Of a stretch of DNA of 64,000 bases, positions 9,213-53,311 are shown piece after piece. How positions within the stretch are numbered: the stretch's first letter is position 1; each line of letters opens with the position of its first letter. The stretch comes from Alphaproteobacteria bacterium (lineage in GTDB: Bacteria > Pseudomonadota > Alphaproteobacteria > Rs-D84). The notes under the pieces are model-generated. The model was not told the DNA's origin and ran no database searches. It saw only the letters and a list, made by a program, of their open reading frames with translations. Both the position numbers and the translations under genes were made by a program. Location: positions 34,834 through 98,833 of the forward strand of contig WRHR01000002.1 in the NCBI GenBank assembly GCA_009783145.1, written 5' to 3'.

Positions 9213-9214
9213 CA

Positions 9215-11356
9215 TTACCATTCGTGCGGCACGCATTGCCCGCCTTGGGTTTTGTACCCGTTGAAGCATCTGCATCCGATTTTCACGCATCCGTTCGTAC
9301 CGCCCGAGGTGGAAGTAATGCCATCGGAAGAAATGCCTTCGCAGACCGCGCTATAATCCGAATACGGAGGACACATCACGACGCCGGGGCCCCAGCCCGT
9401 GCCGAAGTCGCGGATAGAGCCTTCGCCATGCACGCCCGGCGTTTCCCGCAGGCAGCTTTCGCGCAACGATGCCGAGCTTTGTCCGCCAACCGCCGTTATG
9501 ACGTTCAGGATTTCCGTCAGCCGGACCACATTGCGGCAGTTATTGATGCTCCAATCCTGCGAGTTATTGCAACTGCCGGTGCTGTCCGGAACATCGATAA
9601 TTCTGCCCGCGCCTTGGCCGCATACCATGGTGTCATAGCAGCTTGGGACCTCCGAGCTCTGCGAGCAATAATTCCTTACGCGCGCCACGGTCCAATTCGG
9701 GTTAGACCGGTTCTGCTGGTCAAAGCAGTCATATATTTCATTGACGCAGTTCTTATAGTTCTCCTTGGCAGTCGCCAATTCGTTCGCCGTGTTCGTCGTT
9801 TCTTCCTGCGCGAACTCCAGACGCTTTTGCTGCAAGTATTGCGTCGCGGCGATCTTCTGATACGCCATGTTCGTCGCTTGCTTTTTCAGCTCTTCCCCAT
9901 ACAGGTCGCAATCCGCGTTCGCGTCCAGCGCATACTTTTGCAGGATGGAACGGCGCGCGTCCGCAACCGGGCGGCGCAAGTTCGCGTACGGGTCGCCGCT
10001 GGACGTCGTATAGCCATAGCACGCCGCGCTGGTGTTGCCGGTATAAGAATTTCCGGGGTTAACGAAGTTCAAATCGGACCCGTCGTTGCTGACGGTGATA
10101 GTGCTGTTAAGATTATACGGCCCGGTGGTGCCGCCGTACGATCCGCACGCTTCATAGATTCCGTTAAAGCAGGAATCCAGAACTCGGTTGCAGACGTTGT
10201 TGTGCCCGTACTGGAACAGCTGGTATCCCCAAAGCCTCGCCAGAAAGTCCGCCGACGTCTCGGTATTGAACAGGTTTATATCCGCCATCTGGCCCACTAT
10301 ATCGCTGACGTTCATGAACGAGTTGAACAAGTTGCCATCGTTGCTGCCCGTGATAACATTGATTTGGTTTATGGTGCTGGCATAGGTCTGCAGGTTCGCC
10401 AAGATATCGGAATCCGCGCCGTTCAGAACGCTCATAAACTCATTGAAGCTGTTCAGCCCCAGCGCGCCGTTGGTGCAGTACGAAGGCGGAGTCGTCGCAT
10501 TGCATGTCTCGCTGTATCCGGCGGTCTGTCCCATCATATGGTTGTTGCACCAGTCGGTCATGTTCTGCCCTGTGGTTTTCGCATCGCGCCAGGATACGCA
10601 GTTCAGGGTCTTTTCCGCATCGGTAAGTTGGAACGCCTCGTTCATGCTCTTGCCCCTGGTCATAATCAGCATAGACAGCTGGCCCGAAACTTTCAGCAAG
10701 TCTTCTTTCGCCTGCTGCAGTTGAGCCTCGACATTGGAAAAGGTCTTTACGCGTCCGGCGCAGGCGCAGCGGCGCTGGCCCGGATTGCGCGCGGTGCAGA
10801 TTTCGTCCATGCAGGTGTAATAAGATTCCAAACAGTTGGCGTAAGCGTCCGCGGAAATCAAGCCCGTGGTCGGATCTATTATGTTGGAATAAGTTCCCGT
10901 ATACAGCCTGTTCTGCAACAAGGTGTTCGAAGCGCTGACTCCGGCGCTGGCGCGGATCGGCACATCTCTCAGCGATATGCGCGCCTGGCTCGCGCCCGCC
11001 GGCATTGTTGCGGTACGCGCGGTGACACTGCGCGCCGGACTGCCGGGACGCGTCACTACATTTCTGGGGGTCGCGGCTGAAGCGGCATTCCCGCGCTGCG
11101 CCACGCCGCGCGAGGTCTGGCCGGTTGCTGCCGTGCCTCGGCTGGTCCCGGTTGTCGCGCCGGCTTTCGCCGCCGCCGATGTCGTTTGGGCACGTCCGGT
11201 GCGATTGTTCGCGGCGCCCGAGCGCCCGGACTGCGCGGCCGCAGTGGTCTGCGCAGGCACTGTCTGGTCGTACCCGGCAATCGGATCACCCAACGCTGGC
11301 AACGCAAAAGCGGCGCAAAGCGCAAACGCAAAGTATACAAAAAACCGGCTTTTCAT
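9215..11356 (-). CDS. Large secreted Cys-rich protein A (paralog of B)
   Basis: 713 aa, signal peptide MKSRFFVYFAFALCAAFALPALG; 4-bp overlap with downstream paralog suggests an operon. Confidence 0.6.
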   Translation of the reverse strand: MKSRFFVYFAFALCAAFALPALGDPIAGYDQTVPAQTTAAAQSGRSGAANNRTGRAQTTSAAAKAGATTGTSRGTAATGQTSRGVAQRGNAASAATPRNVVTRPGSPARSVTARTATMPAGASQARISLRDVPIRASAGVSASNTLLQNRLYTGTYSNIIDPTTGLISADAYANCLESYYTCMDEICTARNPGQRRCACAGRVKTFSNVEAQLQQAKEDLLKVSGQLSMLIMTRGKSMNEAFQLTDAEKTLNCVSWRDAKTTGQNMTDWCNNHMMGQTAGYSETCNATTPPSYCTNGALGLNSFNEFMSVLNGADSDILANLQTYASTINQINVITGSNDGNLFNSFMNVSDIVGQMADINLFNTETSADFLARLWGYQLFQYGHNNVCNRVLDSCFNGIYEACGSYGGTTGPYNLNSTITVSNDGSDLNFVNPGNSYTGNTSAACYGYTTSSGDPYANLRRPVADARRSILQKYALDANADCDLYGEELKKQATNMAYQKIAATQYLQQKRLEFAQEETTNTANELATAKENYKNCVNEIYDCFDQQNRSNPNWTVARVRNYCSQSSEVPSCYDTMVCGQGAGRIIDVPDSTGSCNNSQDWSINNCRNVVRLTEILNVITAVGGQSSASLRESCLRETPGVHGEGSIRDFGTGWGPGVVMCPPYSDYSAVCEGISSDGITSTSGGTNGCVKIGCRCFNGYKTQGGQCVPHEW

Positions 11357-11421
11357 AAAAAACCCCTTCCCTATATTCGTTTTATTATATCATAAAAACT
11401 AACTGAGTGAAAGCGTTATCA

Positions 11422-11508
11422 ATGACTAATGACCAATGACTAATGTTTAATGACCAATATAAGCGCCCATTAGTCATTCGTCATTTATCATTGGTCATTA
11501 GTCATTAA
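11422..11508. repeat. Heptamer-array hairpin element, family B (second copy)
   Basis: caatgactaatgaccaatgactaatg ... cattagtcattcgtcatttatcattggtcattagtcatt. Confidence 0.8.
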
Positions 11509-11536
11509 AAAATCGCCGCGAATACGGCGATTTTAT
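11509..11536 (-). terminator. Intrinsic terminator (aatcgccg-cgaata-cggcgatt + U-tract on minus)
   Basis: Hairpin plus T-run directly after the stop of 11537-11965. Confidence 0.55.
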
Positions 11537-11965
11537 TTACTCTTCGTCATTCGTTCCGACGACCTCTTCAATTTCTATCTTGCTTGCTTTCCATTCGGAT
11601 TTTTTAGCCTCGCATTTCTCGCCTCTATCGCCTTCTTTGGCGTCGCAATTCCATTCTTTTTTCATGCCGTCTTTTTTATCTTTCCATTTGGCTTTTTCCC
11701 CGGCTTTTTTATCCTTCCATTCTTTCTTCTTGCCTTCTTTTTTAGCTTTCATTTCGGCTTTCTTGGCATCTTTCGTACCTTTGCATTCCGTCTTTATGCT
11801 TTCGCGTTCTTGGGTCGCCTCTTCCGTGCCGGTGTACGATTTATCGGTAATCTCTACTGTCGCCGGCTCCTTTTTCTTGCCCAGGAAATCAAACATGCCG
11901 GCACTTGCCGCCGATATACCGATAACCAAAGCCAACCCCGAAATCATAACTTTTCTCATAAGCAA
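11537..11965 (-). CDS. Small secreted Lys/Glu-rich repeat protein (EWKDKKAGEKAKWKDKKDGMKKEW)
   Basis: 142 aa, signal peptide, internal K/E repeats with spaced Trp and Cys. Confidence 0.4.
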   Translation of the reverse strand: MLMRKVMISGLALVIGISAASAGMFDFLGKKKEPATVEITDKSYTGTEEATQERESIKTECKGTKDAKKAEMKAKKEGKKKEWKDKKAGEKAKWKDKKDGMKKEWNCDAKEGDRGEKCEAKKSEWKASKIEIEEVVGTNDEE

Positions 11966-12024
11966 TCTCCTTTCTGCTGTTGCTGAAGCACTCTAGCATT
12001 AATCGCTAAAAATGAAAAGCTGTT

Positions 12025-12237
12025 TTATCTGCCAAAGCCGAGTTCTTTTAACTCTTTCTTATATTTTTGAAAGTTCGGGCATTTTGACTGGTCGCAGCCG
12101 GCGCTCCAGAACCCGCAAGTTTCGCAGGGATTCCGGGGGCGCTGTAAATGGGCTGAGCCCGGCGGGGGGCCAAATTCCGACATTCTCGTTTCTTTTGTTA
12201 GAAGCATCAAAGACTGTAATAAAAAATTTCGCGACAT
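12025..12237 (-). CDS. Possible small Cys-rich zinc-binding protein (CETCGFWSAGCDQSKCPNF)
   Basis: 70-aa ORF, CxxC...C...C spacing; weak. Confidence 0.2.
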   Translation of the reverse strand: MSRNFLLQSLMLLTKETRMSEFGPPPGSAHLQRPRNPCETCGFWSAGCDQSKCPNFQKYKKELKELGFGR

Positions 12238-12440
12238 GCATCAGGAAAGGATTCAACCGCCCATTTTGCCGATATTATGAACATTTTCATACAACTATAA
12301 AGAGATGGACGCAAAATAAACAACCAATATTAGTTAGGAATAATTGCGTACAATTGTAAGTTGTATCTTTCCAACAATTCGCGCGCAGGATTTGTTTTAG
12401 CCCTCAAAACATGGTACAATAGCATCAAAAGGAGGGGGCT

Positions 12441-12716
12441 ATGAGCTACTTAACAATAATCCGCAATATAAGAAACACATTATTCAAAGTATTTTTGATA
12501 AACATTTTGTTTGTTATCGTATTTTGGGTATTCGCGATGCTGGATCTGATGCAGTACTTTATATGGGCGCTGCCCGGCTGGACATTGGAAATGACCAATG
12601 ATTATATCATATGGCTGATCGGGCTTATAGAAGTTGTAAACCTTGTTCTGTTCCTGGCGCCGACCTTGGCGCTGAGCTGGGAAATCGGCCGCGTAAAGCC
12701 GAAGAAAAAGAAATAA
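12441..12716 (+). CDS. Small membrane protein (2-3 TM)
   Basis: 91 aa hydrophobic; aggagggggct SD 6 nt upstream of ATG. Confidence 0.35.
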   Translation: MSYLTIIRNIRNTLFKVFLINILFVIVFWVFAMLDLMQYFIWALPGWTLEMTNDYIIWLIGLIEVVNLVLFLAPTLALSWEIGRVKPKKKK

Positions 12717-12747
12717 AAATTCCGCCGGATGGCGGGATTTTTATTCT

Positions 12748-13158
12748 TTATTTTTTTCTTTCGCCATATTGTTCCATCAACTGTTTGTCTATAGTCCTCC
12801 TTGCCGCGCTTCGCAATGCAAGCCATAATTTATACTTGTCGCAGTCGCATTCTCTCGGATCGCAATTCCTGCAATTTTTATGAGAACCGCAGCCGATTTT
12901 ATCCTCAATATCCACATTGGAAATACGCTGAACGGCGCGGCACACAGTATCGGCAATTTTACTACCCTTCTTTCCGCCCGCTTCTTGGCCAAGATAAGCT
13001 TCATCAAGACGCTTTGCGTCATCGAAATAACCGGCAGGCATTGTTTCTGCCCATTCTGCATTTGTTAACTTATCCCCGTCGTTATTAAACATAGCATTTC
13101 TCTTTTTTCCCCGCCAAAAACTCTCTTCCGTTAAACCTGGGCTGATTGTACAATACAT
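12748..13158 (-). CDS. Hypothetical protein with C-terminal Cys cluster (CGSHKNCRNCDPRECDCDKY)
   Basis: 136-aa ORF. Confidence 0.3.
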   Translation of the reverse strand: MYCTISPGLTEESFWRGKKRNAMFNNDGDKLTNAEWAETMPAGYFDDAKRLDEAYLGQEAGGKKGSKIADTVCRAVQRISNVDIEDKIGCGSHKNCRNCDPRECDCDKYKLWLALRSAARRTIDKQLMEQYGERKK

Positions 13159-13286: not shown

Positions 13287-13889
13287 TTATGCACTCATAA
13301 TACTATCCACCAATTTATGGATTCCAGCAAGCTTAGACGCCTCATACTCCTTGCCATCCGCATTGCTAAGCCCCCAGCTCCTGGCCGTATCTTGTGCCAA
13401 TTCATACCTTTTCATCATGTCCTCGAAGTTAAACTTTGCTCCATCACTATGGTCATACCCAGGCATTATTTCTTCTAGCTTCTTTTGGCACTGATGTCTT
13501 GTCGTTGGGATATCAGAAGGCGGAACATAATGTGATAACGCCCATGCTTCTATACACGGCGTATTCAATGCTATTTGTACTTTTGGCCTATTGGCAACCG
13601 AATTGCTTTCCTTTGCCTTTTGATATGCCAGTCTTACTCTTTCCGCTTTATCATCGTGATCAAACACGCACCAATATTCTACGCTTTTCTCTATTCGCTT
13701 ATCTTTGACAAAAGATACCATTCCCTCAACAATCTTCAATGGATCCGTATGCTTGTGGGGTTGAATTTGAAGCATACATCTTGGATTTAATTTACTAATC
13801 GCATCCAAATACCTTGGTTCGGAATTCACTCCCTCACAAATCACATATACTGTTTTGGTAATCAAAGGTCTACTTGGCGGGCATCTCAT
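13287..13889 (-). CDS. RloB-like protein (AbiLii-like component)
   Basis: N-terminal VYVICEGVNSEPRYL matches the RloB (vICEGxtEpnYf) signature; 20-bp overlap with the upstream ATPase gene. Confidence 0.6.
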   Translation of the reverse strand: MRCPPSRPLITKTVYVICEGVNSEPRYLDAISKLNPRCMLQIQPHKHTDPLKIVEGMVSFVKDKRIEKSVEYWCVFDHDDKAERVRLAYQKAKESNSVANRPKVQIALNTPCIEAWALSHYVPPSDIPTTRHQCQKKLEEIMPGYDHSDGAKFNFEDMMKRYELAQDTARSWGLSNADGKEYEASKLAGIHKLVDSIMSA

Positions 13890-15192
13890 CCGTATTCTCC
13901 GCAGATTTTACACCATCCAAAAAGAGATGCGCCCCTAAAAAGGGAATTGCACCATATACGCCATTCAGATACCCTCTTTCCACATCTTTGTCTTTGCGGG
14001 GGGCAAAATCTGCCAACGAATATAATTTCGAGGAATGGTCAAAATCTTTTTTTACAAACCAAATTTCATCATCACGCCATATATCCTGAATATCCATTAG
14101 CAGCGTGTTATGCAAAGATACCAATATTTGTGAACCATTTTTATTATCTGCCAATAATTGCTGCAATAAGCGCTTTACAATGAACGGATGCAGAGAGCTA
14201 TCAAACTCATCAATTATCAATAAAGCGCCTTTTTGATAATTTTTAAAGTTATATAACGCCAAAGCAAGATGTATTAGCCTATTCGTCCCGGTAGATAGTT
14301 CTGACAACTCAAAATACTCGTTCTCGACTTTGATTTTCAACTTCTCTCCTTTCGCCTTTCCAGATGCAACATCAAATGTAAAAACATAGTAGTCTTCACC
14401 ATCCATATATGATAGAGCATCGCCGAATTTTACAGGTGTCGTATATTTGGACGGCTTACTCTTTAACAATTCATTTGTTAAATCATCTGAAATTTTTACA
14501 AATTCCGCGCACTGAATACCAACATCGGATTCTTGCAATAACCTATTTAAAAATTCGGGAAAACTACTCTGTGTGTTATAAACATTATAGAATGACGACA
14601 TCTTGACCTTGGTCTTATCGTTGAAAAGCAATATGGCCCCAAAAAATTCATATAAATTTTCTATATGATCTCTATACGACCAATCAATGCTATTGAGGCC
14701 GTCAGTATCTAATTTGCGAATATAAGACATTCGATCCGCAACGGTTTTATTTTCTCTCGACCAATTTCCACCACATTCGACCTTGCCTTTTGAGCGACGA
14801 AATATCAATTCAGTTTGCGAGTCGTCTTTTATCAGTTCAAATTTCTCACTAACAAATTCCGCAGGTCTGATCTTCATTTCATACAAATACTTTTTGTTGC
14901 TCCATATAAAGCTGATTTTAAAAACCGATTCGTTATTTTCGGAAAATCTGAATTGGCTTGCCTTTACATTCAACGAAGAAATATCATCCATTTCTATCAA
15001 CAAACTTAACCAGCTCAATGAATTCATAAAATTTGATTTTCCGCTCGCATTTGCACCATAAATTACTGCTCCTGATAAGTATTCATCTGAGACAATATGG
15101 TCCAAGTGTTGTCTGCTGCCGGTTTTTTCAAAACTAATCTCTTGTTCGGAATCAAACGAGCCAAAATTTGACACGGAATATTTCACAAGCAT
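13870..15192 (-). CDS. AAA_21-type ATPase (AbiLi-like / RloA-like component)
   Basis: Walker A GANASGKSNFMNSL, Walker B LLIIDEFDSSLHP typical of AAA_21. Confidence 0.7.
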   Translation of the reverse strand: MLVKYSVSNFGSFDSEQEISFEKTGSRQHLDHIVSDEYLSGAVIYGANASGKSNFMNSLSWLSLLIEMDDISSLNVKASQFRFSENNESVFKISFIWSNKKYLYEMKIRPAEFVSEKFELIKDDSQTELIFRRSKGKVECGGNWSRENKTVADRMSYIRKLDTDGLNSIDWSYRDHIENLYEFFGAILLFNDKTKVKMSSFYNVYNTQSSFPEFLNRLLQESDVGIQCAEFVKISDDLTNELLKSKPSKYTTPVKFGDALSYMDGEDYYVFTFDVASGKAKGEKLKIKVENEYFELSELSTGTNRLIHLALALYNFKNYQKGALLIIDEFDSSLHPFIVKRLLQQLLADNKNGSQILVSLHNTLLMDIQDIWRDDEIWFVKKDFDHSSKLYSLADFAPRKDKDVERGYLNGVYGAIPFLGAHLFLDGVKSAENTDEMPAK

Positions 15193-16155: not shown

Positions 16156-19027
<2,872 letters not shown>

Positions 19028-19889: not shown

Positions 19890-21585
<1,696 letters not shown>

Positions 21586-21939
21586 TTAGAAAACTTGTTT
21601 GTTTGTCCGTGCACTAAACTAAACTGACATTGAATGTTAGTTCGTTTTACTATTTCGCAAGACAAGTATTTTAACGAGGCCACAAAATTTTGTAACCTAC
21701 TACCTGTCTAGGATATGCACTATGACAATTGTCAAAGTTTGGATTTTCCCAAATTCAACTGTCTGCACATCCCTTCTTTTTATGATTTGTATTTTGCAAC
21801 GCAAAACACCCATCATAAATCTTGATGAGCTGCTTTATTCACAATGTTGCGATTTTTCCTGGGACAACGAATCGTGTTGTTTCCATAAAACCGCAGAATT
21901 TCAGGGGTTGAAGCTTTTGTTCCAACTTGAAAGCCCGCA

Positions 21940-21969
21940 TAATATAAAGTGTTTTTATGAAAATGTCAA
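21940..21969 (-). promoter_or_regulatory. Candidate rrn P1 sigma-70 promoter (TTGACA - 16/17 nt - TATATT) with AT-rich UP region
   Basis: Minus-strand reading ccccTTGACAttttcataaaaacactTTATATTATgcggg, about 360 nt upstream of 16S. Confidence 0.5.
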
Positions 21970-22127
21970 GGGGAAAATTAAAAATATTTTCTGCGGCACC
22001 CTGCGGGAAACTAACGAAAAATGCATTTTTCTGTCTATACATGCCCGTTTTGTAAATCATCTTATACAAAACTGCGTTTTTTACCCGCAAATTCGCTATT
22101 AAAAAAATTTTGCATAGCAAAACTTGA

Positions 22128-22157: not shown

Positions 22158-23060
22158 TCAAAACCTATACATCAATCCCAGTTTTATCATCGGGAATAAT
22201 TTTAATTTCGCCAGTTCGTCATCGGCCATGCGCAACGCTGCTTTTTTATTGGTGTTAAGCTCGGTTTCTACCGGCGTGCCTTTGATAACCGGATCCCAAT
22301 TATCTCCATCGTCATGGCTGACCCATAAATTATCCAGCGGTATATTCAGCCCCAGTCTCGCAGTCCGGCTGGTAAACACTGCGCCCGCGTCCATATATAT
22401 CTTCACGCCCCACAACAGCCCCAGATCGAAACCGGTTCCCAGATACGGCCCGGAATATTTCCAAGTCATATCCGCGCCGACCTTCAGCTCGGTGCCGCTG
22501 TATCCGTAAAGGGTGTCGTTCAGCTCGAACGTTATCATATCGTCATCTGTGCGCGTCCCCTTGATGCCCGCGCCGGCGCCGATTTTTCCGGTCATATATC
22601 CCCCCGATATGCGCACACCCCCAAGGAACCAAGTATCCCCGAACGGATAGAAATCAACAATCGCGCCGATATGATTTGCTTTCAGATCGATATTGCCTTT
22701 TAGGGATATGTTGTCGTCGATTTCAAAGCCGTCATTGCCGACCGCCGAATCAATCGCCGAATTTATCGTGGATTTGATCGGAGAAGTCGTGGCGAAATCC
22801 AGGCGCAGCCCCAAACGCTTCCACCAGAACGAATCGAAATTTTTATTCGCGTATCCGACAAATCCGTTCAAGCCGGATGTAAAGGACACGCCGAGTCCCA
22901 ACTGCATTCCTTGCGGGAACTCGGTCTTGGGATTCGATGCCACGACCGGCGCCTTGACTTCCGATAAATCGGCTTTTATTTCTTCAAGCGCGCTCTCGTT
23001 CGCGAACGTGGGCAGGACAAACATCGTTGCAAAAATAACCGGCAAAATCTTTTTCATCAT
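22158..23060 (-). CDS. Outer-membrane beta-barrel protein (porin-like), C-terminal ...LMYRF
   Basis: Signal peptide, alternating amphipathic strands, terminal aromatic Phe; paralog of 23539-24819. Confidence 0.6.
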   Translation of the reverse strand: MMKKILPVIFATMFVLPTFANESALEEIKADLSEVKAPVVASNPKTEFPQGMQLGLGVSFTSGLNGFVGYANKNFDSFWWKRLGLRLDFATTSPIKSTINSAIDSAVGNDGFEIDDNISLKGNIDLKANHIGAIVDFYPFGDTWFLGGVRISGGYMTGKIGAGAGIKGTRTDDDMITFELNDTLYGYSGTELKVGADMTWKYSGPYLGTGFDLGLLWGVKIYMDAGAVFTSRTARLGLNIPLDNLWVSHDDGDNWDPVIKGTPVETELNTNKKAALRMADDELAKLKLFPMIKLGLMYRF

Positions 23061-23086
23061 ATGGGGAACTCCTTTTGTACAAAATA

Positions 23087-23347
23087 GGTCCAGAATTGGT
23101 TAAATTCCAGGTCAAGGCGGCAGGGAAATTAAAACAAGAACAAGGACTTTCGCGAAACAAGTATATTATACTTGTGAGCGGAAAGCCGCAGTTATTGGTT
23201 TAATTTGACGCCGTCCCGAAGGATGTGGCTAAAATCCCCCATCGCTTTGTCAAACCGGCTCGTCGTATTATATACGCCTTCGCCGATTTTCCGCGCGCTG
23301 TGCGATTTTATCTCGCACCTTGACCTGGAATTTAACCAATCCTGGAC
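23087..23347. mobile_element. MITE-like element: 261 bp bounded by 31-bp terminal inverted repeats, no ORF
   Basis: ggtccagaattggttaaattccaggtcaagg ... ccttgacctggaatttaaccaatcctggacc (30/31 match). Confidence 0.6.
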
Positions 23348-23430
23348 CTAACTATAACAATCAAAAGGAATGTTTTCAAGCGTATATTACATTAACCGTA
23401 TAACCATATAACCATTAATCACGAATCACT

Positions 23431-23520
23431 TGTCGTTCTAGTATACTAGAACGGCAAGTATAAAATAAAATGTCCATTATAACGGACAACGTTCATTATC
23501 GCGTACGACTTATGATTAGG
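23431..23520. repeat. Composite palindromic element: TTCTAGTATACTAGAA + TGTCCATTATAACGGACA + cgacttatgatta (copy 1)
   Basis: Homologous to 52131-52225. Confidence 0.7.
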
Positions 23521-23538: not shown

Positions 23539-24819
23539 TCAAAATCTATACATTACCCCCAGGCGCACTATCGGATAGAATTGAAAATCTTTCAGAATGT
23601 TATTGGCATCGCGCACTATATTATGGCGGCCGCGATGGTACTCGTCTATTATGCCCTGCACATCGGAATCCAGCGCGCTGTGCGCGTTCGCAACCGCATC
23701 CTGCACTATATTATTGATAGCGTCGCAATTGCCGCCGCATGCGGCGATACCCGCGCTGTACCAAATTGGCGGAGCGCCGCCTCCTATTACCCATGACGTT
23801 ATGTCGTTCAAAATGACGGTCGGATCTATATTGCCGGCAATCAAGATATTCTGGAACAGGCTGACGTCAGTCCCGTTGAAGTTTCCCCCCGGCGCGGTCA
23901 GGATTTCATCCAGGATGCTGCCGAGAAGCCCCGCGGTCGTCCCCGGTATATCGTTCTTATCAATATTAGTCCAACCGCATTCGAAGCCGTTGCCGATAAC
24001 GTAACAGGCTTGGATTTTATCATAGGGAAGAACTATATCGCTGTCATGCAGCTTGGGCGGATTGGTAAATATCACGCCCGCATCGACAAAGAACTTAAAG
24101 CCGCGAAACACGCCGATGTCCCAGCCAAGCCCTCCGTAAGGCCCGTTGTATTTCCAATTCAATTTTCCGCGGACTTGCGCGCCGCCTTGCAAACGGGTCC
24201 TGATTTCGCCGGCGGCGCCAACATCGATTATGAATCCGCCGGGCGGAGTATCATTCGGCACATTCGCCCGCAGATCGATGTCCAATCTGCCGATATAATA
24301 ACCGCCGGATAGGCGAAATCCGCCCACAACGGCGGTATCTCCAAAAGGATAAAAATCAATCAGCCCGCCGAACCGGTTATCATTTACGGAAAAGACGCCG
24401 TTAACTCCGTCCAGATTCACGTCTGCGCCATGAATTGCTATCGGGTCAAAGGCATCTTCCCATTTATAGTTATATTTCAGCCCCAGAACATTAAGATTGA
24501 AGTCTATGCTGGTCTCGTCATAAACGCGCGCCGAAATCATCTTATTCGTGCCGGTGGCCAAATCGGCGCGGAATCCGAATCGCTTTCCCCAAAAGCCCGG
24601 CGCGTCCTTATTCGCATATCCGACGAACCAGTTCACCGAAGAAAGAGGCCAAAGCGCCAAGGGAGCGCCGATTCCGAACTGCCATCCCGCATACGGTGAC
24701 TTTTGCGGAGCGGATTTGCCGTCTTTCAGAACTTCATCTATAGGCTTCAGATCGGGCGCTTCTGCAAAAGCAGGTATAGCAAATGCAACCGCAAAAATAA
24801 TCGGCAATATTTTTCTCAC
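23539..24819 (-). CDS. Outer-membrane beta-barrel protein paralog, C-terminal ...VMYRF
   Basis: 426 aa; signal peptide MRKILPIIFAVAFAIPAFA; shares N- and C-terminal blocks with 22158-23060. Confidence 0.6.
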   Translation of the reverse strand: MRKILPIIFAVAFAIPAFAEAPDLKPIDEVLKDGKSAPQKSPYAGWQFGIGAPLALWPLSSVNWFVGYANKDAPGFWGKRFGFRADLATGTNKMISARVYDETSIDFNLNVLGLKYNYKWEDAFDPIAIHGADVNLDGVNGVFSVNDNRFGGLIDFYPFGDTAVVGGFRLSGGYYIGRLDIDLRANVPNDTPPGGFIIDVGAAGEIRTRLQGGAQVRGKLNWKYNGPYGGLGWDIGVFRGFKFFVDAGVIFTNPPKLHDSDIVLPYDKIQACYVIGNGFECGWTNIDKNDIPGTTAGLLGSILDEILTAPGGNFNGTDVSLFQNILIAGNIDPTVILNDITSWVIGGGAPPIWYSAGIAACGGNCDAINNIVQDAVANAHSALDSDVQGIIDEYHRGRHNIVRDANNILKDFQFYPIVRLGVMYRF

Positions 24820-25611: not shown

Positions 25612-25613
25612 TA

Positions 25614-25738
25614 ATTAGCGATTAGCAATTATCAATTAGCGATTAAAAATGCAACAATATGAAATGTCCAATATACTGGACAATGTTATTACCAGTTCCC
25701 CAATTGCTAATCGCTAATTGCTAATCGCTAATTCCTTT
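25614..25738. repeat. Heptamer-array hairpin element, family A (second copy) with central TGTCCAATATACTGGACA
   Basis: ttagcgattagcaattatcaattagcgatt ... ttgctaatcgctaattgctaatcgctaatt; shared gcaacaata flank. Confidence 0.85.
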
Positions 25739-27984
25739 ACTGTTTTCGTCTTCGGGTCGTATACCTTTGGGGTGCCGCGATATCCCATCGTAGAATGATG
25801 GCTGGGGATTAGAAATTCCGGCAGAGGCGTGCTTTCGCCCATACTCCTGAACGCCTGCAGCCGCGGGTCGGAATACGCCGGAGTATAATCCGCTTCGATC
25901 GGCCTGTGGTACCAGCCTTGGAATATTACCAGCTCCTTTTTCGCGTCCAGCTTCAGAATATCCATAGTGCTGTAAAGCGGCTTTCTTTCCGTCGTCGTAG
26001 TGTCTTTTCCGTCCGCGCCCTTGGTCTTTTTCTCCTCCACTTTTTCGCCCATCATATCCGAAAATCTTTTGGCGGTATCGGGGTCATTCTGGCGGAAAAC
26101 GATTTTCGCCGCAGTCGTGGAAATTATGGTTGCCGCCGCGTCCGCGCCGTACTTTTCCTGAATCTGGTGAATATCCTGGCCGATGATAAGATAAGACACT
26201 TTCTGTCCTCGGCCGATATCGGGCCCTTGGATAATCGCCTGCATCTTTTGCATTTTGGGCATTTCGTCCAAGACGAACAAGGCGGGGAACGGCCCGACTT
26301 TTTGACCCTTATGCTCGTCGCCGGGCGCGTTCGCAATCAGAAACTTAGACATAAGCTCGATAAATATTGCCGTTATCGGGTTCAAGGCGTCGGCATCGAC
26401 CTGATTGATGGACAGGTATACCGTAACCGGCTTTATTTTTCCATCGCGCGGGTCGATCATACCGCGCAGATCCGCGAAATGAAAATCACTGTGGCTGGTG
26501 CGATTTCGCACGGCGGCGTTTCGGAAAATCCCCAGCCCCGCCAGAACCGTGGACAGGATGGAGCCGCGCTCCTTGTCCGGGGTATTCGCAATCTGCGTAA
26601 GCTCCAAAACCGCGCGATGGCTGTATCCGTACTGCAGCGCTTCGTTCACCGCGTTCAGGAACAAGTCCTTCATGGGATCGGCCATCATCACCATCTGGTC
26701 GCCTTGCTTGCGGCGGTTTTCTATTTCCTCGGCGATCAGCACCTGATTTTTGTTCAGCCAGTCCAGAATCATGGACAAAGACGCCTCTTTCCCGATCCAA
26801 TCGTCCGGAATCTTCGCCCAAGTCCCGATATGGACATAGTTCATGGCATTCAACTGCCCGTTGGCCAAGGCATGCAGCGCGGCATCCGCATTCGGGTCAT
26901 TCATAAGGGTATAATACTCGCCCAGCAATGCGGCGTCTTCGGAATCGAATTGTCCAGATTGCAGGCGCGCGTAAAAATACTCGTCCGCCTTGACCTTGTC
27001 TATCTTGGAAACCATAAAGTTGATAAGACCCGAAAGCGCCGCGCGGCCGGAAATCGTCCAATGGGGGTCGGCGGTAGAGCTTGTCTTGTCCGCAATAAGC
27101 GTGGAGCATATGGAGTCTATGTAAAGGTCGCGCTCTTCGGCCAGAAACGGCACATGCGAAGGCGATAAAGGGTTCCAGGACGGATAATAAATGCCCGCCG
27201 CCGGATCGTCCTGGCCCGCCCAGTTCATGATAAACACCGGGCCTACTTTCTCCGCGCGATACGCGGACGACTGCTGCTTTAATTCCGGCTTCGGGTCGTT
27301 GATAATCATCGAAACGCCGGTGCAATCAAAGATAGTGGGCAAAACGACGCCTTGGGTTTTACCGGTCCCTGGAGGAGCCAAACATAGGGCGGAAAAAGTC
27401 TCCTTCATCATCAGCGGCTTTTTCTTCCAATAGCCCAGAACCATCATAAAACCGTCAAGCAGGCCCATTTTTTTGACATCTTCGTCATTGGCCTTGCGCG
27501 AGGACTCTTCTTTCAGGGTGTCTTTGCCATGTGGGTTGAACTCTTTAAGCAGGGTATCGTCCGCCAGGATGAAAAACACGGCCAGCGGAAGCAGCGGGGC
27601 AAGCGTCGCAATATCGGTCTGGGTGACGGCTCTCATAAGCCAATCCGGGACTTCGGCCAGCACGGACAAGCCGCCGCTGCGCAGCAGGTTTCCGAAATAT
27701 ACGCTGATCCACTTGGCGGCGGCCGGCGACCAGCCATAGCGCCATATATGCTCGATCGGAAACGCCAGAATAAACGCCAGCGCGCAGGACAGCCAGATAA
27801 TAAGCTTGTACCGCATATTCCAGAACAAGCGCGCCAAGGGCGTCCTTTCGTGGTCCTTGTACACGGACGAGTCGAATATCTTCAGCCCCTTGCCTTTGCC
27901 CGAAAACGATAAAAAGTTGAACTTTTCTGCCATTAGGTTTATTATACCAAAAAAATAGGTAATTGATAATGCAAAACTTGCCAA
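25714..27984 (-). CDS. virD4: Type IV secretion coupling protein VirD4/TraG family
   Basis: Two N-terminal TM segments, Walker A LAPPGTGKTQGVVLPT, Walker B FVLDEMP, 756 aa. Confidence 0.8.
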   Translation of the reverse strand: MASFALSITYFFGIINLMAEKFNFLSFSGKGKGLKIFDSSVYKDHERTPLARLFWNMRYKLIIWLSCALAFILAFPIEHIWRYGWSPAAAKWISVYFGNLLRSGGLSVLAEVPDWLMRAVTQTDIATLAPLLPLAVFFILADDTLLKEFNPHGKDTLKEESSRKANDEDVKKMGLLDGFMMVLGYWKKKPLMMKETFSALCLAPPGTGKTQGVVLPTIFDCTGVSMIINDPKPELKQQSSAYRAEKVGPVFIMNWAGQDDPAAGIYYPSWNPLSPSHVPFLAEERDLYIDSICSTLIADKTSSTADPHWTISGRAALSGLINFMVSKIDKVKADEYFYARLQSGQFDSEDAALLGEYYTLMNDPNADAALHALANGQLNAMNYVHIGTWAKIPDDWIGKEASLSMILDWLNKNQVLIAEEIENRRKQGDQMVMMADPMKDLFLNAVNEALQYGYSHRAVLELTQIANTPDKERGSILSTVLAGLGIFRNAAVRNRTSHSDFHFADLRGMIDPRDGKIKPVTVYLSINQVDADALNPITAIFIELMSKFLIANAPGDEHKGQKVGPFPALFVLDEMPKMQKMQAIIQGPDIGRGQKVSYLIIGQDIHQIQEKYGADAAATIISTTAAKIVFRQNDPDTAKRFSDMMGEKVEEKKTKGADGKDTTTTERKPLYSTMDILKLDAKKELVIFQGWYHRPIEADYTPAYSDPRLQAFRSMGESTPLPEFLIPSHHSTMGYRGTPKVYDPKTKTVKELAISN

Positions 27985-33004: not shown

Positions 33005-33838
33005 TTATAGCACATTAGCGCGCGCTAGTTCAACAAACTTTTCCATAGGCAATTCTTCCGCGCGCTCTTGCCCGGTTAATCCGAATTGCGACCAATCGAC
33101 GCCGGGCATAATGCTGCGTATCATTTTCCTCCGCTGGCCGAAAAGCTTCGCGGTCAGCTTTTCAACGGATGACAGCTGAATTGTTTTTTTATCTTTCGGG
33201 ATTATCTGCACAACCGCGCTTTGGACTTTCGGCGCGGGGAAAAAAGCGGTATTCGGAATATTGAATAAAATCTTCGCGTCCGCAACCAAAGCGGTAAGAA
33301 CGCTCAGCCGGCCGTATTGCTTATCGCCGACGCGCGCGACGATTCTATCCGCCACTTCGCGCTGGAACATTAAGGTCATAGAGTGGAGAGTGGAGAGTGA
33401 AGAGTGTAGTTGGTGCAGCCACTGAATTAAAAGTTCAGTTCCGATATTATACGGAAGGTTGGAACAAATTGCTAAATCATCTGCACTCTTCACTCTCCAC
33501 TCTTCACTCTTGAAATATTTCAATGCGTCGCCATAAATAACTTCCAGGCGGCCGTCTGCGGCGTTCGAAATTTTTTTCAAAATCAGCCCGGTCGCACGGT
33601 CTTTTTCAATCGCGATAACTCGCGCGGCGCCGCACTCCAGCAAAGCGCGCGTCAGGCCGCCCGGCCCTGGGCCGACTTCGACAACCGTAGCGCCCTGTAT
33701 GCCCGGCACGCTGCGCGCTATTTTCCGCGTGAGGTTCAGATCGAACAGGAAATTCTGGCCCAGCTGCTTTTTGGGTTCCAGGCCCGCATCGCGCATCATT
33801 TCTGCAACTGGGGGAAGATTTAATAATTTTTCATTCAT
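33005..33838 (-). CDS. rsmA: 16S rRNA (A1518/A1519) dimethyltransferase
   Basis: SAM motifs VVEVGPGPGGLT, NLPYNI; contains a 28-bp inverted repeat pair in-frame. Confidence 0.85.
   Translation of the reverse strand: MNEKLLNLPPVAEMMRDAGLEPKKQLGQNFLFDLNLTRKIARSVPGIQGATVVEVGPGPGGLTRALLECGAARVIAIEKDRATGLILKKISNAADGRLEVIYGDALKYFKSEEWRVKSADDLAICSNLPYNIGTELLIQWLHQLHSSLSTLHSMTLMFQREVADRIVARVGDKQYGRLSVLTALVADAKILFNIPNTAFFPAPKVQSAVVQIIPKDKKTIQLSSVEKLTAKLFGQRRKMIRSIMPGVDWSQFGLTGQERAEELPMEKFVELARANVL
33379..33512. repeat. Inverted heptamer arrays (gagtgaa/gagtgga ... cactctt/cactctc) inside the rsmA coding sequence
   Basis: atagagtggagagtggagagtgaagagtgtag and ctgcactcttcactctccactcttcactcttg, 71 bp apart, bracketing the NLPYNI codons. 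Confidence 0.85.
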
Positions 33839-35863: not shown

Positions 35864-36976
35864 TCAATGAAACACAAAGCAATCTATCTGCTGCGTTTTG
35901 GCCGCCTGGCATGCGCTCTGCGCCGCGCTTTCCGACAGGCCGTTCGCACGCACGCGGAACATTCCGCTGGGGGAAGGCTCAACCACCGCTGACAGTCCTG
36001 TAATATTACGAACGCGCGTCACTTGCGATTCTGCGGCCGCCCGTGATCCGAAAGCACCAAATTGAACGCCAGTCCCGCCCGCGTTTTGCACGGGAACAAT
36101 TGCCGCGGGCTTGCTTAACGGCTTCGTTACGGCCACGGGCGGCGGCGCATAATTATTCTGCACCGCAACCGGCGCCGCGCCAGTTCCTAGTATTGTAAAT
36201 CCTTTATCCAGCATCCTTGTCGAAACCGCGGCGCGAATATCCTTGGTTTGCGCGCCCAGAACAACGCTCATCACGCGCCGACCGTCGCGTTTGGCTGTTG
36301 CCACCAGCGAATATTTGGACTTGTTCGTATATCCTGTCTTCATACCGTCGCATCCCGGATACGACGCCAGCAGCCGGTTCCCGTTGGTATAAGTCTGCCC
36401 GTTATAAGTCCAGCTTTGAATCCCGAAATATTTCCAATATTGCGGGAAATGCTTGTAAACCGCCATAGACAGCAATGCGATATCGCGCGCGCTTGACAGG
36501 TGGTCGTCGTCCGGCAATCCGGACGAGTTCTCGAAATTAGTCTTGGAAAGCCCGATTTCCGTCGCGACCTGTGTCATCAATGACGCGAAGTTTCCCTCCT
36601 TTCCACCCTTCAGGTTTTCCGCCAAAACCCGCGCGACATCATTCGCGCTGTGCACCGCGACGGCTTTTATCGCGTCTTCAACCCTTATCTTCGACCCCGC
36701 GGCCAGGCCCAGTTTTACAGGCAAAGCATTCGCCGCGCTTTGCGAAACGATTAAGTGGTCGTCCAGATTAAGACGCTTGTGCTCCAACGCGTCGAATGTC
36801 AGATACAGCGTCATGATTTTCGTAAGAGATGCCGGATAATTCAGGTCGTTCGCGTTCTCGGAATAAAGCACTTTGCCCGTATCCAAGTCCGCGACAAGCA
36901 CGGCGTTATAGTCGGCTGCAAACGCCGATACCGAAAGAATAAAGAATAAAGAATAAAGAATAAAGAATCTCTTCAT
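35864..36976 (-). CDS. dacA: D-alanyl-D-alanine carboxypeptidase (PBP5/6 class) with C-terminal SPOR domain
   Basis: SxxK (ASLTK), SxN (SAND), KTG motifs; C-terminal VQFGAF...SPOR-like; signal peptide MKRFFILYSLFFIL from a repeat arm. Confidence 0.8.
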   Translation of the reverse strand: MKRFFILYSLFFILSVSAFAADYNAVLVADLDTGKVLYSENANDLNYPASLTKIMTLYLTFDALEHKRLNLDDHLIVSQSAANALPVKLGLAAGSKIRVEDAIKAVAVHSANDVARVLAENLKGGKEGNFASLMTQVATEIGLSKTNFENSSGLPDDDHLSSARDIALLSMAVYKHFPQYWKYFGIQSWTYNGQTYTNGNRLLASYPGCDGMKTGYTNKSKYSLVATAKRDGRRVMSVVLGAQTKDIRAAVSTRMLDKGFTILGTGAAPVAVQNNYAPPPVAVTKPLSKPAAIVPVQNAGGTGVQFGAFGSRAAAESQVTRVRNITGLSAVVEPSPSGMFRVRANGLSESAAQSACQAAKTQQIDCFVFH

Positions 36977-37082
36977 AGCATGAAAGAGTACAAAATTTTC
37001 ATATAAAAGGTCAATTAATAAAAGTACCGCGCAACCTAGATTACGCGGCCCTAATTTATTCTTTATTCTCTATTCTTTATTC
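36937..37082. repeat. Heptamer-array hairpin element, family E: (aagaata)x3 - spacer - (tattctt)x3; left arm codes the dacA signal peptide, right arm abuts the pyk stop
   Basis: gaaagaataaagaataaagaataaagaat ... ttattctttattctctattctttattcttta. Confidence 0.8.
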
Positions 37083-37083
37083 T

Positions 37084-38472
37084 TTAATCCAAATCTCTCA
37101 ACGAAATTTTATCCCCTTCGACTATTACCAGCTTTCCGCGCGTGACGCCAAAGCGACGCGCCGCCTCGGACGCGTCCTTTTGTCCGAACATCTGCTCGTT
37201 AAAAATCGGATAGACCCCGCGCGAAAGGCACAACTGATTCGCATCTATCGCATCGTTGCAGACCGCGATTATCGGCATATCGGGTTTCCGACAGGAAACA
37301 GCCGTCGCAATTTCAGTCCCCGCGTCAAACACCACGATCGCCGCGGCTTTGTTCAAATGAGCCATCGACGCGACGCTGCGCGACCAGTCGTTTTCGGGCA
37401 AGTTCTCGATTCGCGTCCAATCCTGTCCGTTCTCATAAACGTCCCCGTCGGCGTTGGTCACGATTTTCGACATAGTATCGATCACGTTTATGGGATTGTC
37501 GCCAATGGTCGTTTCTTCGCTGGTCATAACGCAGTCCGCGCGCAAATAAGACGCCAGCGCGACGTCGGAAATTTCCGCGCGCAAGGGGAACTCGCTGTGA
37601 ACCATGCTGCCCAGCATCTGCGTTGCGACGATGATCGGCTTGTTCATCTTGCGGCACATGCGGATGCTTTCGCGCTGCAGCGCGGGAAGCTTTTCAAAAG
37701 GTATTTCCACGGCCAAATCCCCGCGCGCGAACATAATAGCGTCGGAAATCTGAATGATTTCTTCCAGCCGTTCCAACGCCTGGGGCCGTTCTATTTTCGA
37801 AATGATTTTAATAGGCTGACTGGAACGAGCCGTGATAAAATCGCGGGCCTCGGCCACGTCTTCGGGCCGCTGCACGAAAGAAATCGCAACCCAATCGGGG
37901 TTCTTGGTCAGCGCGTATTCCAAATCCGTACGGTCTTTTGGCGTCAGCACCGAAGTTTCTATATCGGTATCGGGAATATTGAACCCGCGGCGCGACCAGA
38001 TTTCGTCGCCGCGCTTTACTTTTGTCGTCACGGAGCAGAGCCTGGATTCAACCGTGCAATTGTTATTCAGAACTTCCAGCTCTATCTTTCCATCATTCAA
38101 TAAAACGCGGTCGCCGACTTTCAAGGACTTCAAGACATCGTTATCCGGCAGGCAGACGCGGGTTTCATCGCCGCGAGCAGGATTATTGTCCAGAACGAAT
38201 TCCTGACCGACTTTCAAAGGATAGTGGTTTTCGGTTTTAAAGTCGCCTATGCGGTGCTTTGGCCCCTGCAAGTCCGCGATGATCGCAATCGGACGGCCCA
38301 GTTCTTCGGATATCTGTCGTATCAAGTCAATCTTTTGCCCCTGGACATCGCCGGTGTCATGCGAAAAATTCAGGCGGCAGGCATTCACGCCCGCATCAAC
38401 CATCGACTTCAAAGTCTTGTAATCCTGGCTGTTCGGTCCGATGGACGCGATTATTTTAGTGAGTTTGGTCAT
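37084..38472 (-). CDS. pyk: Pyruvate kinase
   Basis: MTKLTKIIASIGP..., conserved K+/Mg sites, 462 aa. Confidence 0.85.
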   Translation of the reverse strand: MTKLTKIIASIGPNSQDYKTLKSMVDAGVNACRLNFSHDTGDVQGQKIDLIRQISEELGRPIAIIADLQGPKHRIGDFKTENHYPLKVGQEFVLDNNPARGDETRVCLPDNDVLKSLKVGDRVLLNDGKIELEVLNNNCTVESRLCSVTTKVKRGDEIWSRRGFNIPDTDIETSVLTPKDRTDLEYALTKNPDWVAISFVQRPEDVAEARDFITARSSQPIKIISKIERPQALERLEEIIQISDAIMFARGDLAVEIPFEKLPALQRESIRMCRKMNKPIIVATQMLGSMVHSEFPLRAEISDVALASYLRADCVMTSEETTIGDNPINVIDTMSKIVTNADGDVYENGQDWTRIENLPENDWSRSVASMAHLNKAAAIVVFDAGTEIATAVSCRKPDMPIIAVCNDAIDANQLCLSRGVYPIFNEQMFGQKDASEAARRFGVTRGKLVIVEGDKISLRDLD

Positions 38473-38802: not shown

Positions 38803-38839
38803 ATCGCTTTCGCGATTTATAAACCGAGAGCAGAGTAGC

Positions 38840-38935
38840 GCGCGCTTCGCGCGCAGAGTAGAAGAGTAGGAGATTATTAGATACTCTCTAACTCTTTTAC
38901 TCTGCGCGCGAAGCGAGCGTTACTCTCTTACTCTT
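38840..38935. repeat. Heptamer/octamer-array hairpin element, family C (copy 2) with GC hairpins gcgcgcgcttcgcgcgc
   Basis: cagagtagaagagtaggag ... tactctctaactcttttactctgcgcgcgaagcgagcgttactctcttactctt. Confidence 0.8.
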
Positions 38936-49466: not shown

Positions 49467-49590
49467 AGGTAGGAGGTAGGAAGTTGGAGGTAGGAGGTAA
49501 GAGAGTAAAAGTTTTTTCTTTTAATTTATAGAATAAATTCTTAATCACCAACTTCCTACCTCCTACTTCCTACTTTCTACTTTTGTCCCT
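49467..49590. repeat. Heptamer-array hairpin element, family D with central ttggtgattaagaatttat core (inverted relative to the 53330-53462 copy)
   Basis: taggtaggaggtaggaagttggaggtaggaggtaagagagtaaaag ... accaacttcctacctcctacttcctactttctac. Confidence 0.8.
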
Positions 49591-52231: not shown

Positions 52232-53311
52232 TTACGATTGCTTCAGGATTTCTTCAGCGATGTTAGCAACGGCATTGTTTTCAATCTTCGCCTTTGCCGC
52301 CATCTTTTTCAGGCGCGCCCCATTGCTAAACAATTCCTCCAGCGTTGCGGATAGCCACCTTGAAGTAAATTTGCTCTGCGGGATTGCAATGCCGCCGCCT
52401 TGCGAAGCAAAAACTTCCGCATTCGCCGCCTGGTCGGGGTTTATCCCCAACGGGACCAGAATCGCCGGACGGCCAACGGTCTGCAATTCCGCGACCGTGC
52501 TTGCGCCGCTGCGCCCTATCACCAAGTCCGCCGCCGCCACTTCCGATGCCATATCATGAATGAACGACAGCACGTTCGCCTTCACGCTGTTGCCGGCATA
52601 GAACCTTTGCAAGCGCGCGACGTTTTCCGGCCGGGTCTGATGCACTATGAACAGCTTCTTTACGATGGATGACGGAAGAAGGATGATGGACGACGGAACC
52701 ACGTCGTCCAAAATCTGCGCCCCTAACGAACCACCGGTGACAAGAAGACGGATGATGGATGATGGATGATGGATGATGGATGACATAAATTCTTTACGAA
52801 CAGGTAATCCTGTATAAACAACTTTCAACTTTCCATCATCCGTCATCCGTCTTCCATCATCCATTCCCTCCACCTTTGGAAAACTTGTCATCAAAGTATT
52901 TACCCAGCGCAGGGCGAATTTATTCGCGCGACCAATTGCCGCGTTCTGCTCGTGCAATAATGTCGGGATTTTCCAAACGCGCGCCGCCAAAATTGCAGGA
53001 ACGGACGCATAGCCGCCGAATGCCACAACTCTGTCCGGTCGGAAAACCATAAAGCGCAGCGTCAGAGCAACCGCCGAAAAGCCGATCTTCATCAATGCGA
53101 AGACTTGCTGCAACTTTCCCTTGGCGCCGACGCCGGACGCCCAAACCCAAGCGATTCCCGCGCGCGGAGGCTTATTCTTTTTCACCATATCCATAACGCG
53201 CGAATCGGTCGAGATTATCACGCGATTATGGCGCCGCACCAATTCTTCGGCAACGACCAGCGCTGGAAAAACATGCCCGCCGGTTCCCCCGGTCGCAATC
53301 CATATCTTCAT
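52232..53311 (-). CDS. murG: UDP-GlcNAc:undecaprenyl-PP-MurNAc-pentapeptide GlcNAc transferase
   Basis: GGTGGHVFPAL N-terminus, C-domain LLVTGGSLGA; linker holds an inverted (ggatgat) array element. Confidence 0.85.
   Translation of the reverse strand: MKIWIATGGTGGHVFPALVVAEELVRRHNRVIISTDSRVMDMVKKNKPPRAGIAWVWASGVGAKGKLQQVFALMKIGFSAVALTLRFMVFRPDRVVAFGGYASVPAILAARVWKIPTLLHEQNAAIGRANKFALRWVNTLMTSFPKVEGMDDGRRMTDDGKLKVVYTGLPVRKEFMSSIIHHPSSIIRLLVTGGSLGAQILDDVVPSSIILLPSSIVKKLFIVHQTRPENVARLQRFYAGNSVKANVLSFIHDMASEVAAADLVIGRSGASTVAELQTVGRPAILVPLGINPDQAANAEVFASQGGGIAIPQSKFTSRWLSATLEELFSNGARLKKMAAKAKIENNAVANIAEEILKQS
52748..52867. repeat. Inverted heptamer arrays (ggatgat)x5 ... (atcatcc)x4 inside the murG inter-domain linker, in-frame
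   Basis: gacggatgatggatgatggatgatggatgatggatgacat ... ccatcatccgtcatccgtcttccatcatccattcc; codes MSSIIHHPSSII and GMDDGRRMTDDG around the conserved GLPVR block. Confidence 0.85.

Follow-up and report, generated by a model that had tools for sequence, protein, structure and literature searches.

Intervening sequences (IVSs) are known from helices 9, 25 and 45 of 23S rRNA and from 16S rRNA, with examples in Salmonella, Coxiella, Leptospira and the Alphaproteobacteria (PMC4990558). In an IVS, the tetraloop of the host helix is replaced by an extended stem-loop, the ends of which are complementary over about 28 bp and which is cut by RNase III; more than 25 years after their discovery, both the origin and the function of these inserts are unclear (PMC4990558). 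Correia elements, which can lie between a promoter and its gene, are also cut by RNase III, in this case at their inverted repeats (PMC2649163, PMC10969869). The locus described here has features of both. An element with near-perfect inverted ends lies in the predicted leader of a protein gene, and its homolog lies in 23S helix 25 of a related bacterium.

The window, by which we mean the whole 64,000-nt stretch of DNA that was analysed, carries the element in a 478-nt spacer between two co-directional minus-strand genes encoding outer membrane protein (OMP)-like products of 426 and 300 aa (Table 1). The two proteins are 35% identical to each other, and both have a signal-peptide-like N-terminus and end in ..MYRF. 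They are thus paralogs, as the original prediction had it, but "porin", the name given to them there, was a guess, neither protein having a match in Pfam, NCBIfam or the PDB. Read in the sense of the genes, the spacer consists of the stop codon of the upstream gene, a terminator-like hairpin, a 32-nt palindrome, the promoter of the 300-aa gene, the element, AAGGAG and the ATG. The predicted -10 box (23356-23351) abuts the element and the predicted start of transcription falls ~6-8 nt inside its 5' arm; at the other end, the Shine-Dalgarno sequence begins 10 nt past the stem and is followed, after 8 nt, by the ATG at 23060. Hence the "promoter region" to which the element had been assigned is more precisely the predicted transcribed leader, after the -10 box and 10 nt before AAGGAG. 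The 32-nt near-perfect palindrome ACTTGCCGTTCTAGTATACTAGAACGACAAGT (23428-23459), between the upstream terminator and the OMP promoter, has ends that resemble the conserved tip CAAGTATAATATACTTG of the element (23157-23175); an operator and a second small hairpin element are both conceivable.

Table 1. Coordinates (window numbering) of the element, its flanking signals and genes, and the heptamer-array hairpins of the window
Feature	Position	Strand	Remarks
426-aa upstream paralog	23539-24819	-	OMP-like
Intrinsic-terminator-like hairpin and T-run ending the 426-aa paralog	23471..23488	-	after the upstream stop codon
Predicted sigma-70-type promoter of the 300-aa OMP gene	23351..23379	-	TTGAAA, 17 nt, TG-n-TATAGT; consensus match only
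Closing stem, 5' arm (sense RNA)	23314..23350	-	core 23318-23348, outer TA 23349-23350
Core domain A, long imperfect hairpin	23230..23310	-	tip 23262-23278
Core domain B, long imperfect hairpin	23123..23217	-	tip CAAGUAUAAUAUACUUG, 23157-23175
Closing stem, 3' arm	23085..23122	-	core 23087-23117, outer TA 23085-23086
Shine-Dalgarno AAGGAG of the OMP gene	23069..23074	-	unpaired in predicted fold
300-aa OMP-like gene, leader carries the element	22158..23060	-	signal peptide, ends ..MYRF
Heptamer-array hairpins	108-240, 1025-1121, 2531-2628, 11416-11511, 25613-25733, 33380-33510, 36934-37089
Heptamer-array hairpins, continued	38832-38926, 49469-49580, 52750-52862, 53330-53454, 59257-59333, 60599-60669

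The 300-aa gene is followed directly by an rRNA operon (16S, 21586-19890; two tRNAs; 23S, 19031-16139; 5S). At 21516-21988, between the OMP gene and the 16S gene, the sequence is 74% identical to its counterpart in L007 (L numbers are our handles for the retrieved loci), and on that ground is probably the conserved rRNA promoter and leader; a 126-aa ORF at 21722-22102 (plus strand), annotated publicly in L001 and L004, is likely spurious. Elsewhere in the window there are housekeeping genes, a TraG/VirD4-like coupling protein and an RloB/AAA pair. The coupling protein gene (25714-27984, minus) belongs to the conserved synteny YidC-RsmE-TraG-RluB-OMP-rRNA (L001, L005, L006 and L094), and homologs of TrbI and CagX are encoded ~15 kb beyond the window start (L095 16990-20780); the set resembles the chromosomal type IV secretion systems of Rickettsiales more than it does a mobile element. 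The RloB-like protein and an AAA_21/AbiEii-type ATPase (13287-15192, minus) are likely a defence or OLD-like pair; their genes adjoin the 5S end of the rRNA operon and are preceded by several small ORFs without a family match (9399-13158). Two large minus-strand ORFs, 6330-9290 (986 aa) and 9215-11356 (713 aa), have no Pfam match and are kept in L095 and L096, which are assemblies of the same organism.

The core of the left arm is GGTCCAGAATTGGTTAAATTCCAGGTCAAGG (23087-23117, plus strand), and its inverted copy at 23318-23348 matches at 30 of 31 positions, exactly as had been claimed, although the element, which had been given as 261 bp with its end at 23347, in fact ends at 23348 and spans 262 bp from core to core. 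A TA on each side (23085-23086 and 23349-23350) extends the inverted repeat outward to 33 nt and the element to a total of 266 bp. With an imperfect inward extension detected by a repeat finder, the arms reach 44 nt at 86% complementarity (23085-23128 and 23307-23350), leaving a gap of 178 nt between them. Two matches to the arm were found in none of 100 dinucleotide shuffles of the window, and the 64-kb window itself contains no further copy of the arm at ≤3 mismatches. The minimum free energy (MFE) of the 295-nt region is -126 kcal/mol, with z = -9.4 against shuffles. In the predicted fold, a stem of 33-35 bp closes a core of ~200 nt made of two long hairpins, domain A, in which AGAUAAAAUC pairs with GAUUUUAGC, and domain B; the inner end of the 5' arm carries the conserved stem base GGUGCG and that of the 3' arm carries ..GC..CGCC.

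A coding interior was rejected. All six frames contain stops, the longest stop-free runs being ~40-50 codons, and the differences from the homolog described below are indels of 1, 1, 3, 1 and 2 nt and compensatory pair changes, so that the interior is indeed non-coding. Heptamer arrays, which the other hairpins of the window have, are missing from the element, and it was thus rightly set apart from the heptamer families.

That the element is an insertion can be seen from comparison with orthologous loci. The syntenic relatives L005 and L006 share the gene order YidC-RsmE-TraG-RluB-small OMP-OMP, but their inter-OMP spacers are only 136-139 nt long and comprise a terminator, TTGAAT-18-TATGAT, ~35 nt and the ATG. 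About 20 more orthologous leaders follow the same plan, with -35 and -10 boxes, 20-35 nt and AAGGA, and the position of the OMP promoter in the window is equivalent to that in these orthologs; in all, the insertion is absent from the orthologous OMP leader in ~22 related genomes. When the element is removed from the window sequence with one TA kept, the result is TTGAAA-17-TATAGT-TA-TTTTGTACAAAAGGAG..ATG, which matches the ortholog plan. Since the ortholog leaders lack the insert and the element-removed sequence fits them, the element is an insertion, placed around +1 to +8 of the OMP transcript. With no close relative present in the data, the insertion is specific to this lineage: the identical OMP protein is annotated as "MAG: Alphaproteobacteria bacterium" (FWF97_00950), and the relatives, labelled "Rickettsiales bacterium" and Candidatus Enterousia, reach at best 56% OMP identity. 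In four independent assemblies of this organism from metagenomes (ENA, two Logan runs and JGI), the locus is identical and has the same orientation; the L004 contig ends within the element. As for a target-site duplication, the only candidate is the TA on either side, which is palindromic and would equally be an extension of the inverted repeat, and the flanks beyond it differ (ACAAAA versus ACTATA).

The homolog came from L007, a locus of a related alphaproteobacterial MAG that had been retrieved only for its OMP ortholog. Searched by nhmmer with the whole element, L007 was matched at 9258-9503 (E 1.8e-13), and reciprocal searches in ~0.6 Mb aligned window 23119-23321 with L007 9278-9479 at E 2.9e-17, with low bias, and 6.6e-13. 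The match is inside the 23S rRNA gene (8720 to beyond 10939). The L007 insert, at 9249-9514, is also 266 nt long and has its own complementary ends of 32 nt (9249-9280 and 9483-9514, 91%). Two conserved 23S motifs around helix 25 are 331 nt apart in L007 and 70 nt apart in eight relatives, in which the short helix 25 is GCCGGTTTTCCGGT, and the L007 insert sits at exactly the tip of that helix. From its placement in 23S helix 25 and its complementary ends, the L007 insert is an IVS by position and by shape; there is no TA or other duplication at its borders. The same distance is 212 nt in the 23S of the window itself, owing to an unrelated insert, and 97 nt in L092, so that the core of the element occupies helix 25 in one of ten readable relatives, the window and L092 have other inserts there and eight relatives have none. 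The alignment matches the sense strand of the L007 23S gene with the minus strand of the window, on which the OMP genes and the rRNA operon are encoded. The two organisms are ~91% identical in 16S rRNA and 67% in OMP coding DNA, and their other intergenic DNA does not align.

The pattern of conservation between the two copies is informative. The identity is 40% in the 5' outer arm and 52% in the 3' outer arm, 100% in the stem base, 69% in domain A (L007 9289-9370, with 5 compensatory pairs), 67% in the linker and 64% in domain B (L007 9380-9475, with 8 compensatory pairs). In other words, the outer arms, ~30 nt each, are unrelated in sequence between the homologs yet complementary within each of them. 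RNAalifold predicts a consensus fold common to both, again consisting of the closing stem and the two long hairpins, in which 21 of the 78 pairs are compensatory, i.e. changed on both sides, 5 are changed on one side through G-U and none is broken, although these counts come from one pairwise comparison and are inflated by the fold having been predicted from the same two sequences. Controls in which the pairing partner was slid by 1-3 columns gave 0-3 compensatory pairs, and none of 500 shuffles reached the observed values. The antisense alignment folds worse, with 66 pairs, 15 of them compensatory, and -50.6 kcal/mol versus -55.6 kcal/mol for the sense alignment, and the one position at which the core arms mismatch forms a G-U pair in the sense RNA, while the antisense has A-C there; the single-sequence energy does not fix the strand, the antisense MFE of L007 being slightly better than the sense. 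Pairing that is conserved without conservation of the arm sequence points to an RNA stem rather than to terminal inverted repeats (TIRs) bound by a transposase, and the sharing of the interior but not the arms among family members argues the same.

The window and its 20 kb of flanking contigs (~84 kb in all) contain no second copy, and blastn-short and nhmmer with the whole element found nothing else in the window. In ~640 kb from relatives there was no copy apart from that in the L007 rRNA, and covariance model R1 recovered only the two known members over 688 kb; a marginal R1 match at L092 7125-7204 (E 0.012), antisense in an rRNA leader, was treated as noise. Exact scans with the TIR gave 0 matches (31-mer in genome contigs, 22-mer in metagenome and viral contigs), as did a paired-TIR pattern with a 205-235 nt gap in genome contigs, these being weak nulls that say nothing on copy number, since the scanned collections evidently exclude the source genome, whose own locus went unmatched. 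A blastn search of the PLSDB plasmids with the element found nothing. The original prediction had named a cognate transposase as something to look for; Pfam searches detected no transposase or recombinase domain in the window. What stands of the mobile element proposed there is a discrete insertion bounded by inverted repeats, absent in ~22 relatives and with a relative at a different type of site; its status as a MITE, or as a repeat at all, is not supported, given the single copy in ~84 kb, the lack of a transposase domain in the window and the arms that its homolog does not share.

Other hairpins in this genome occur in both rRNA genes and intergenic DNA. The 142-nt insert in helix 25 of the window's own 23S (~18350-18505, minus), unrelated to the element, is built of two copies of a GCAATTTAATTCGC..GCGAATTAAATTGC hairpin that flank an (AGTTATA)n/(TATAACT)n heptamer hairpin, and helix 25 of L092 has one such small hairpin (97 versus 70 nt), which would fit entry of the heptamer hairpin into a target hairpin of this kind, the whole of which was duplicated in the process. 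The window 16S gene is 1697 nt long. It has a 168-nt insert in helix 6 (~21340-21508, minus), in which a duplicated CCAATCAATTTTT.. hairpin surrounds an (AGAGTAN)n heptamer hairpin, and near model position 190 it is longer by 21 nt; the 16S of L092 is enlarged as well, to 1677 nt. The intergenic heptamer hairpins, unusual and abundant here, have a tandem heptamer array in one arm and the complementary array in the other, and the heptamers seen are AATTAGC, AATGACY, AGAGTAG, GTAGGAG, AAAGAAT, GGATGAT and ATTTACG. Parts of the 16S insert match intergenic hairpins, at 94% (38832-38927) and 93% (2535-2564), which means that IVS sites in rRNA and intergenic sites share hairpin sequences in this genome, and the relationship of our element to an rRNA insert is thereby less isolated. 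[quoted passage not shown]

Our preferred reading, to which we give a probability of roughly 60%, is that the element is an IVS-type structured insertion in the OMP mRNA leader with its arms forming a dsRNA stem. Going by the sequence comparison, it appears to belong to a family that occurs at more than one type of site. Among the points against it are that the family has two members and that the window copy is outside rRNA, so that it fails the location by which IVSs are defined. The conservation of the core might instead reflect recent lateral transfer, and the divergence of the arms might reflect co-evolution with a diverged transposase. A rival is the classical MITE, in which the 31-nt TIRs would be bound by a transposase encoded elsewhere (e.g. 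IS630/Tc1-like, given the TA), the element would have inserted at a TA with duplication of the TA, and the rRNA copy in the relative would be the insertion of a related MITE. The long near-perfect TIRs, the TA on both sides, the typical size and the non-coding interior are all as expected of a MITE, as are the absence from the orthologous site in relatives and the presence of a homolog at an unrelated site in another genome, and the hypothesis that IVSs are remnants of transposition exists in the literature (PMC4990558). The single copy in ~84 kb of this genome, with none in ~640 kb of relatives apart from L007, and the lack of a transposase domain in the window, together with the weak nulls of the TIR scans, speak against it, and since the TA extends the inverted repeat it is no evidence of a duplication, nor does the L007 copy have one. 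Above all, it is the arms that are least conserved and the interior that is better conserved and shows compensatory changes, which is the reverse of what binding by a transposase would lead one to expect. The element is thus probably not a classical MITE, and we consider that origin unlikely. Inverted repeats could also be crossover sites of a recombinase. Invertons have repeats of 20-30 bp flanking ~150-200 bp in leaders, e.g. those of cwpV and flgB in Clostridioides difficile, and the cwpV switch works through an orientation-dependent terminator in the leader. Here, flipping of the 200-bp segment between the 31-nt repeats would switch OMP expression, the agent being an internal promoter or, as at cwpV, a leader terminator that depends on orientation, and the length and spacing of the repeats and their site upstream of a surface-protein gene are typical of invertons; there is even a weak terminator-like hairpin of 5 bp with a T-run (23292-23304) on the plus strand, which would be in sense after inversion. 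However, the window and the four other assemblies all show one orientation, neither strand of the element has an internal sigma-70-like promoter and the window encodes no recombinase domain. Moreover, the homolog is within 23S rRNA, where inversion would destroy the rRNA, so that the role of the arms must differ there, and the window copy shares its sense with the rRNA copy. An inverton is therefore very improbable.

The conserved core might, on the other hand, be a host-functional RNA, either a cis-regulatory leader or a processed small RNA, a module that one species would obtain from its rRNA precursor and another from its OMP leader. The core is as conserved (64-69%) as the OMP coding DNA (67%) when other intergenic DNA cannot be aligned, its fold is kept by compensatory changes and both copies are in the transcribed sense. 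The Rfam 15 covariance models, however, give no match in 23085-23350 at E ≤ 1, and the distribution, one of ten relatives in helix 25 and none of ~22 OMP leaders, is more sporadic than that of a needed function should be; a selfish element that depends on an autonomous fold and clean excision would also keep its structure. We find a host function quite unlikely. Finally, the arms could be a one-off local palindrome, such as an operator, a protein-binding site or an accident of duplication and inversion, which would suit the single copy in the searchable data and the presence of another 32-nt palindrome 80 nt upstream. Arms of 31-44 nt placed ~200 bp apart are far longer than operator half-sites, and the significant homolog with a conserved fold in another genome, L007, largely refutes this idea, which we regard as hardly credible.

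If the element is an IVS-type insertion in the leader, as we prefer, a pathway can be envisioned in which its insertion, possibly into a TA, placed it downstream of the -10 box and upstream of the Shine-Dalgarno sequence of the 300-aa OMP gene. The 5' end of the OMP mRNA would then consist of the element from about its 7th nucleotide onward, transcribed in the same sense as its rRNA homolog; as it emerges, the leader would take up the two-hairpin fold, with a near-perfect duplex of ~26-33 bp closing the core. By analogy with IVSs and Correia elements, this closing stem would most likely be a substrate for RNase III, a gene for which was not seen in the ~84 kb examined. The core would be lost on cleavage, and what remained would be a short leader, monophosphorylated and with an undamaged ribosome-binding site. 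In Escherichia coli, the ompA mRNA is stabilised by a stem at its 5' terminus. An uncleaved OMP leader would begin with a 5'-terminal stem of 26-27 bp, which should shield the mRNA from decay that depends on its 5' end. Whether the leader is cleaved or not, the translation signals would be spared, which could explain why the insertion is tolerated, and the effect on the OMP gene may be only a modest post-transcriptional modulation. That the element is distributed so sporadically speaks for its being selfish or neutral.

So far, IVSs have been known from a few helices of rRNA only, where they occur sporadically. The presence of a helix-25 IVS homolog in the leader of a protein gene means that for one IVS family, at least, sites outside rRNA are accessible, and suggests, as far as two homologous copies can, that rRNA inserts are not confined to rRNA. 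A core that is conserved while the arms change freely speaks for selection preserving a self-contained fold closed by a long dsRNA stem. It is tempting to go further and propose that IVSs and intergenic hairpin repeats are the same kind of mobile element, this locus being an IVS family member outside rRNA, in an mRNA leader adjacent to the rRNA operon, and the 16S and 23S inserts of the same genome being made of hairpins that are also seen between genes, which we hold to be possible but put forward only tentatively. If true, IVSs would not be specific to rRNA: they would be hairpin elements that can persist at any site where they are neutralised by RNase III or by the fold of the local RNA, the old idea of IVSs as transposition remnants would gain direct support, and the locus would be a natural case of IVS-type RNase III processing controlling the mRNA of an outer membrane protein. 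There is also a practical side, in that inserts near or inside rRNA operons break assemblies and can confuse analyses based on 16S and 23S; the organisms affected here are uncultured, apparently gut- or digester-associated Alphaproteobacteria.

Set against the known systems, the element resembles IVSs in being a non-coding stem-loop with complementary ends of ~30 bp and a sporadic distribution, in its direct homology of sequence and structure to the L007 helix-25 insert in the same sense, and in its long dsRNA stem of the RNase III type. It differs in residing in the mRNA leader of a protein gene, so that the outcome of excision would be a processed mRNA and not a fragmented rRNA, and the helix 25 of the window's own 23S carries a different insertion. 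With the Correia repeat-enclosed elements of Neisseria (CREE, NEMIS) it shares the small size, the bounding inverted repeats, the conserved core, the TA, the position between promoter and gene in a transcribed leader and the putative role as an RNase III substrate, with consequences for the mRNA. A resemblance of the arms themselves to Correia repeats was rejected, the published patterns being at an edit distance of at least 10 from the arms (10-11 for the best), and the 26-nt Correia termini TATAG[CT]GGATTAA... (PMC2649163) have no match with ≤5 mismatches in the window. CREE number more than 100 copies per genome with conserved TIRs and carry outward promoters and IHF sites, whereas we see one copy of the element, its arms are not conserved between homologs and neither promoters nor IHF sites were detected in it. 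Invertons share with it the inverted repeats flanking ~200 bp between a promoter and a surface-protein gene, and differ in their orientation polymorphism and recombinase, and in that the homolog here is embedded in rRNA. ERIC, RUP, Rickettsia palindromic elements (RPEs) and REPINs, compared by description only, are likewise short non-coding hairpin inserts tolerated in transcribed regions, but they are multi-copy families and no second copy of the element was seen in ~84 kb here; at 266 nt, with a two-hairpin core, it is also larger and more structured than REP, REPIN or RPE. RPEs occur even inside genes, and they do so in Rickettsiales-like Alphaproteobacteria. By analogy of position and expected processing, CREE are the best functional analogue of the element, and we file it as an IVS-type hairpin, a sporadically distributed stem-loop of the IVS kind that is located in an mRNA leader rather than in rRNA.
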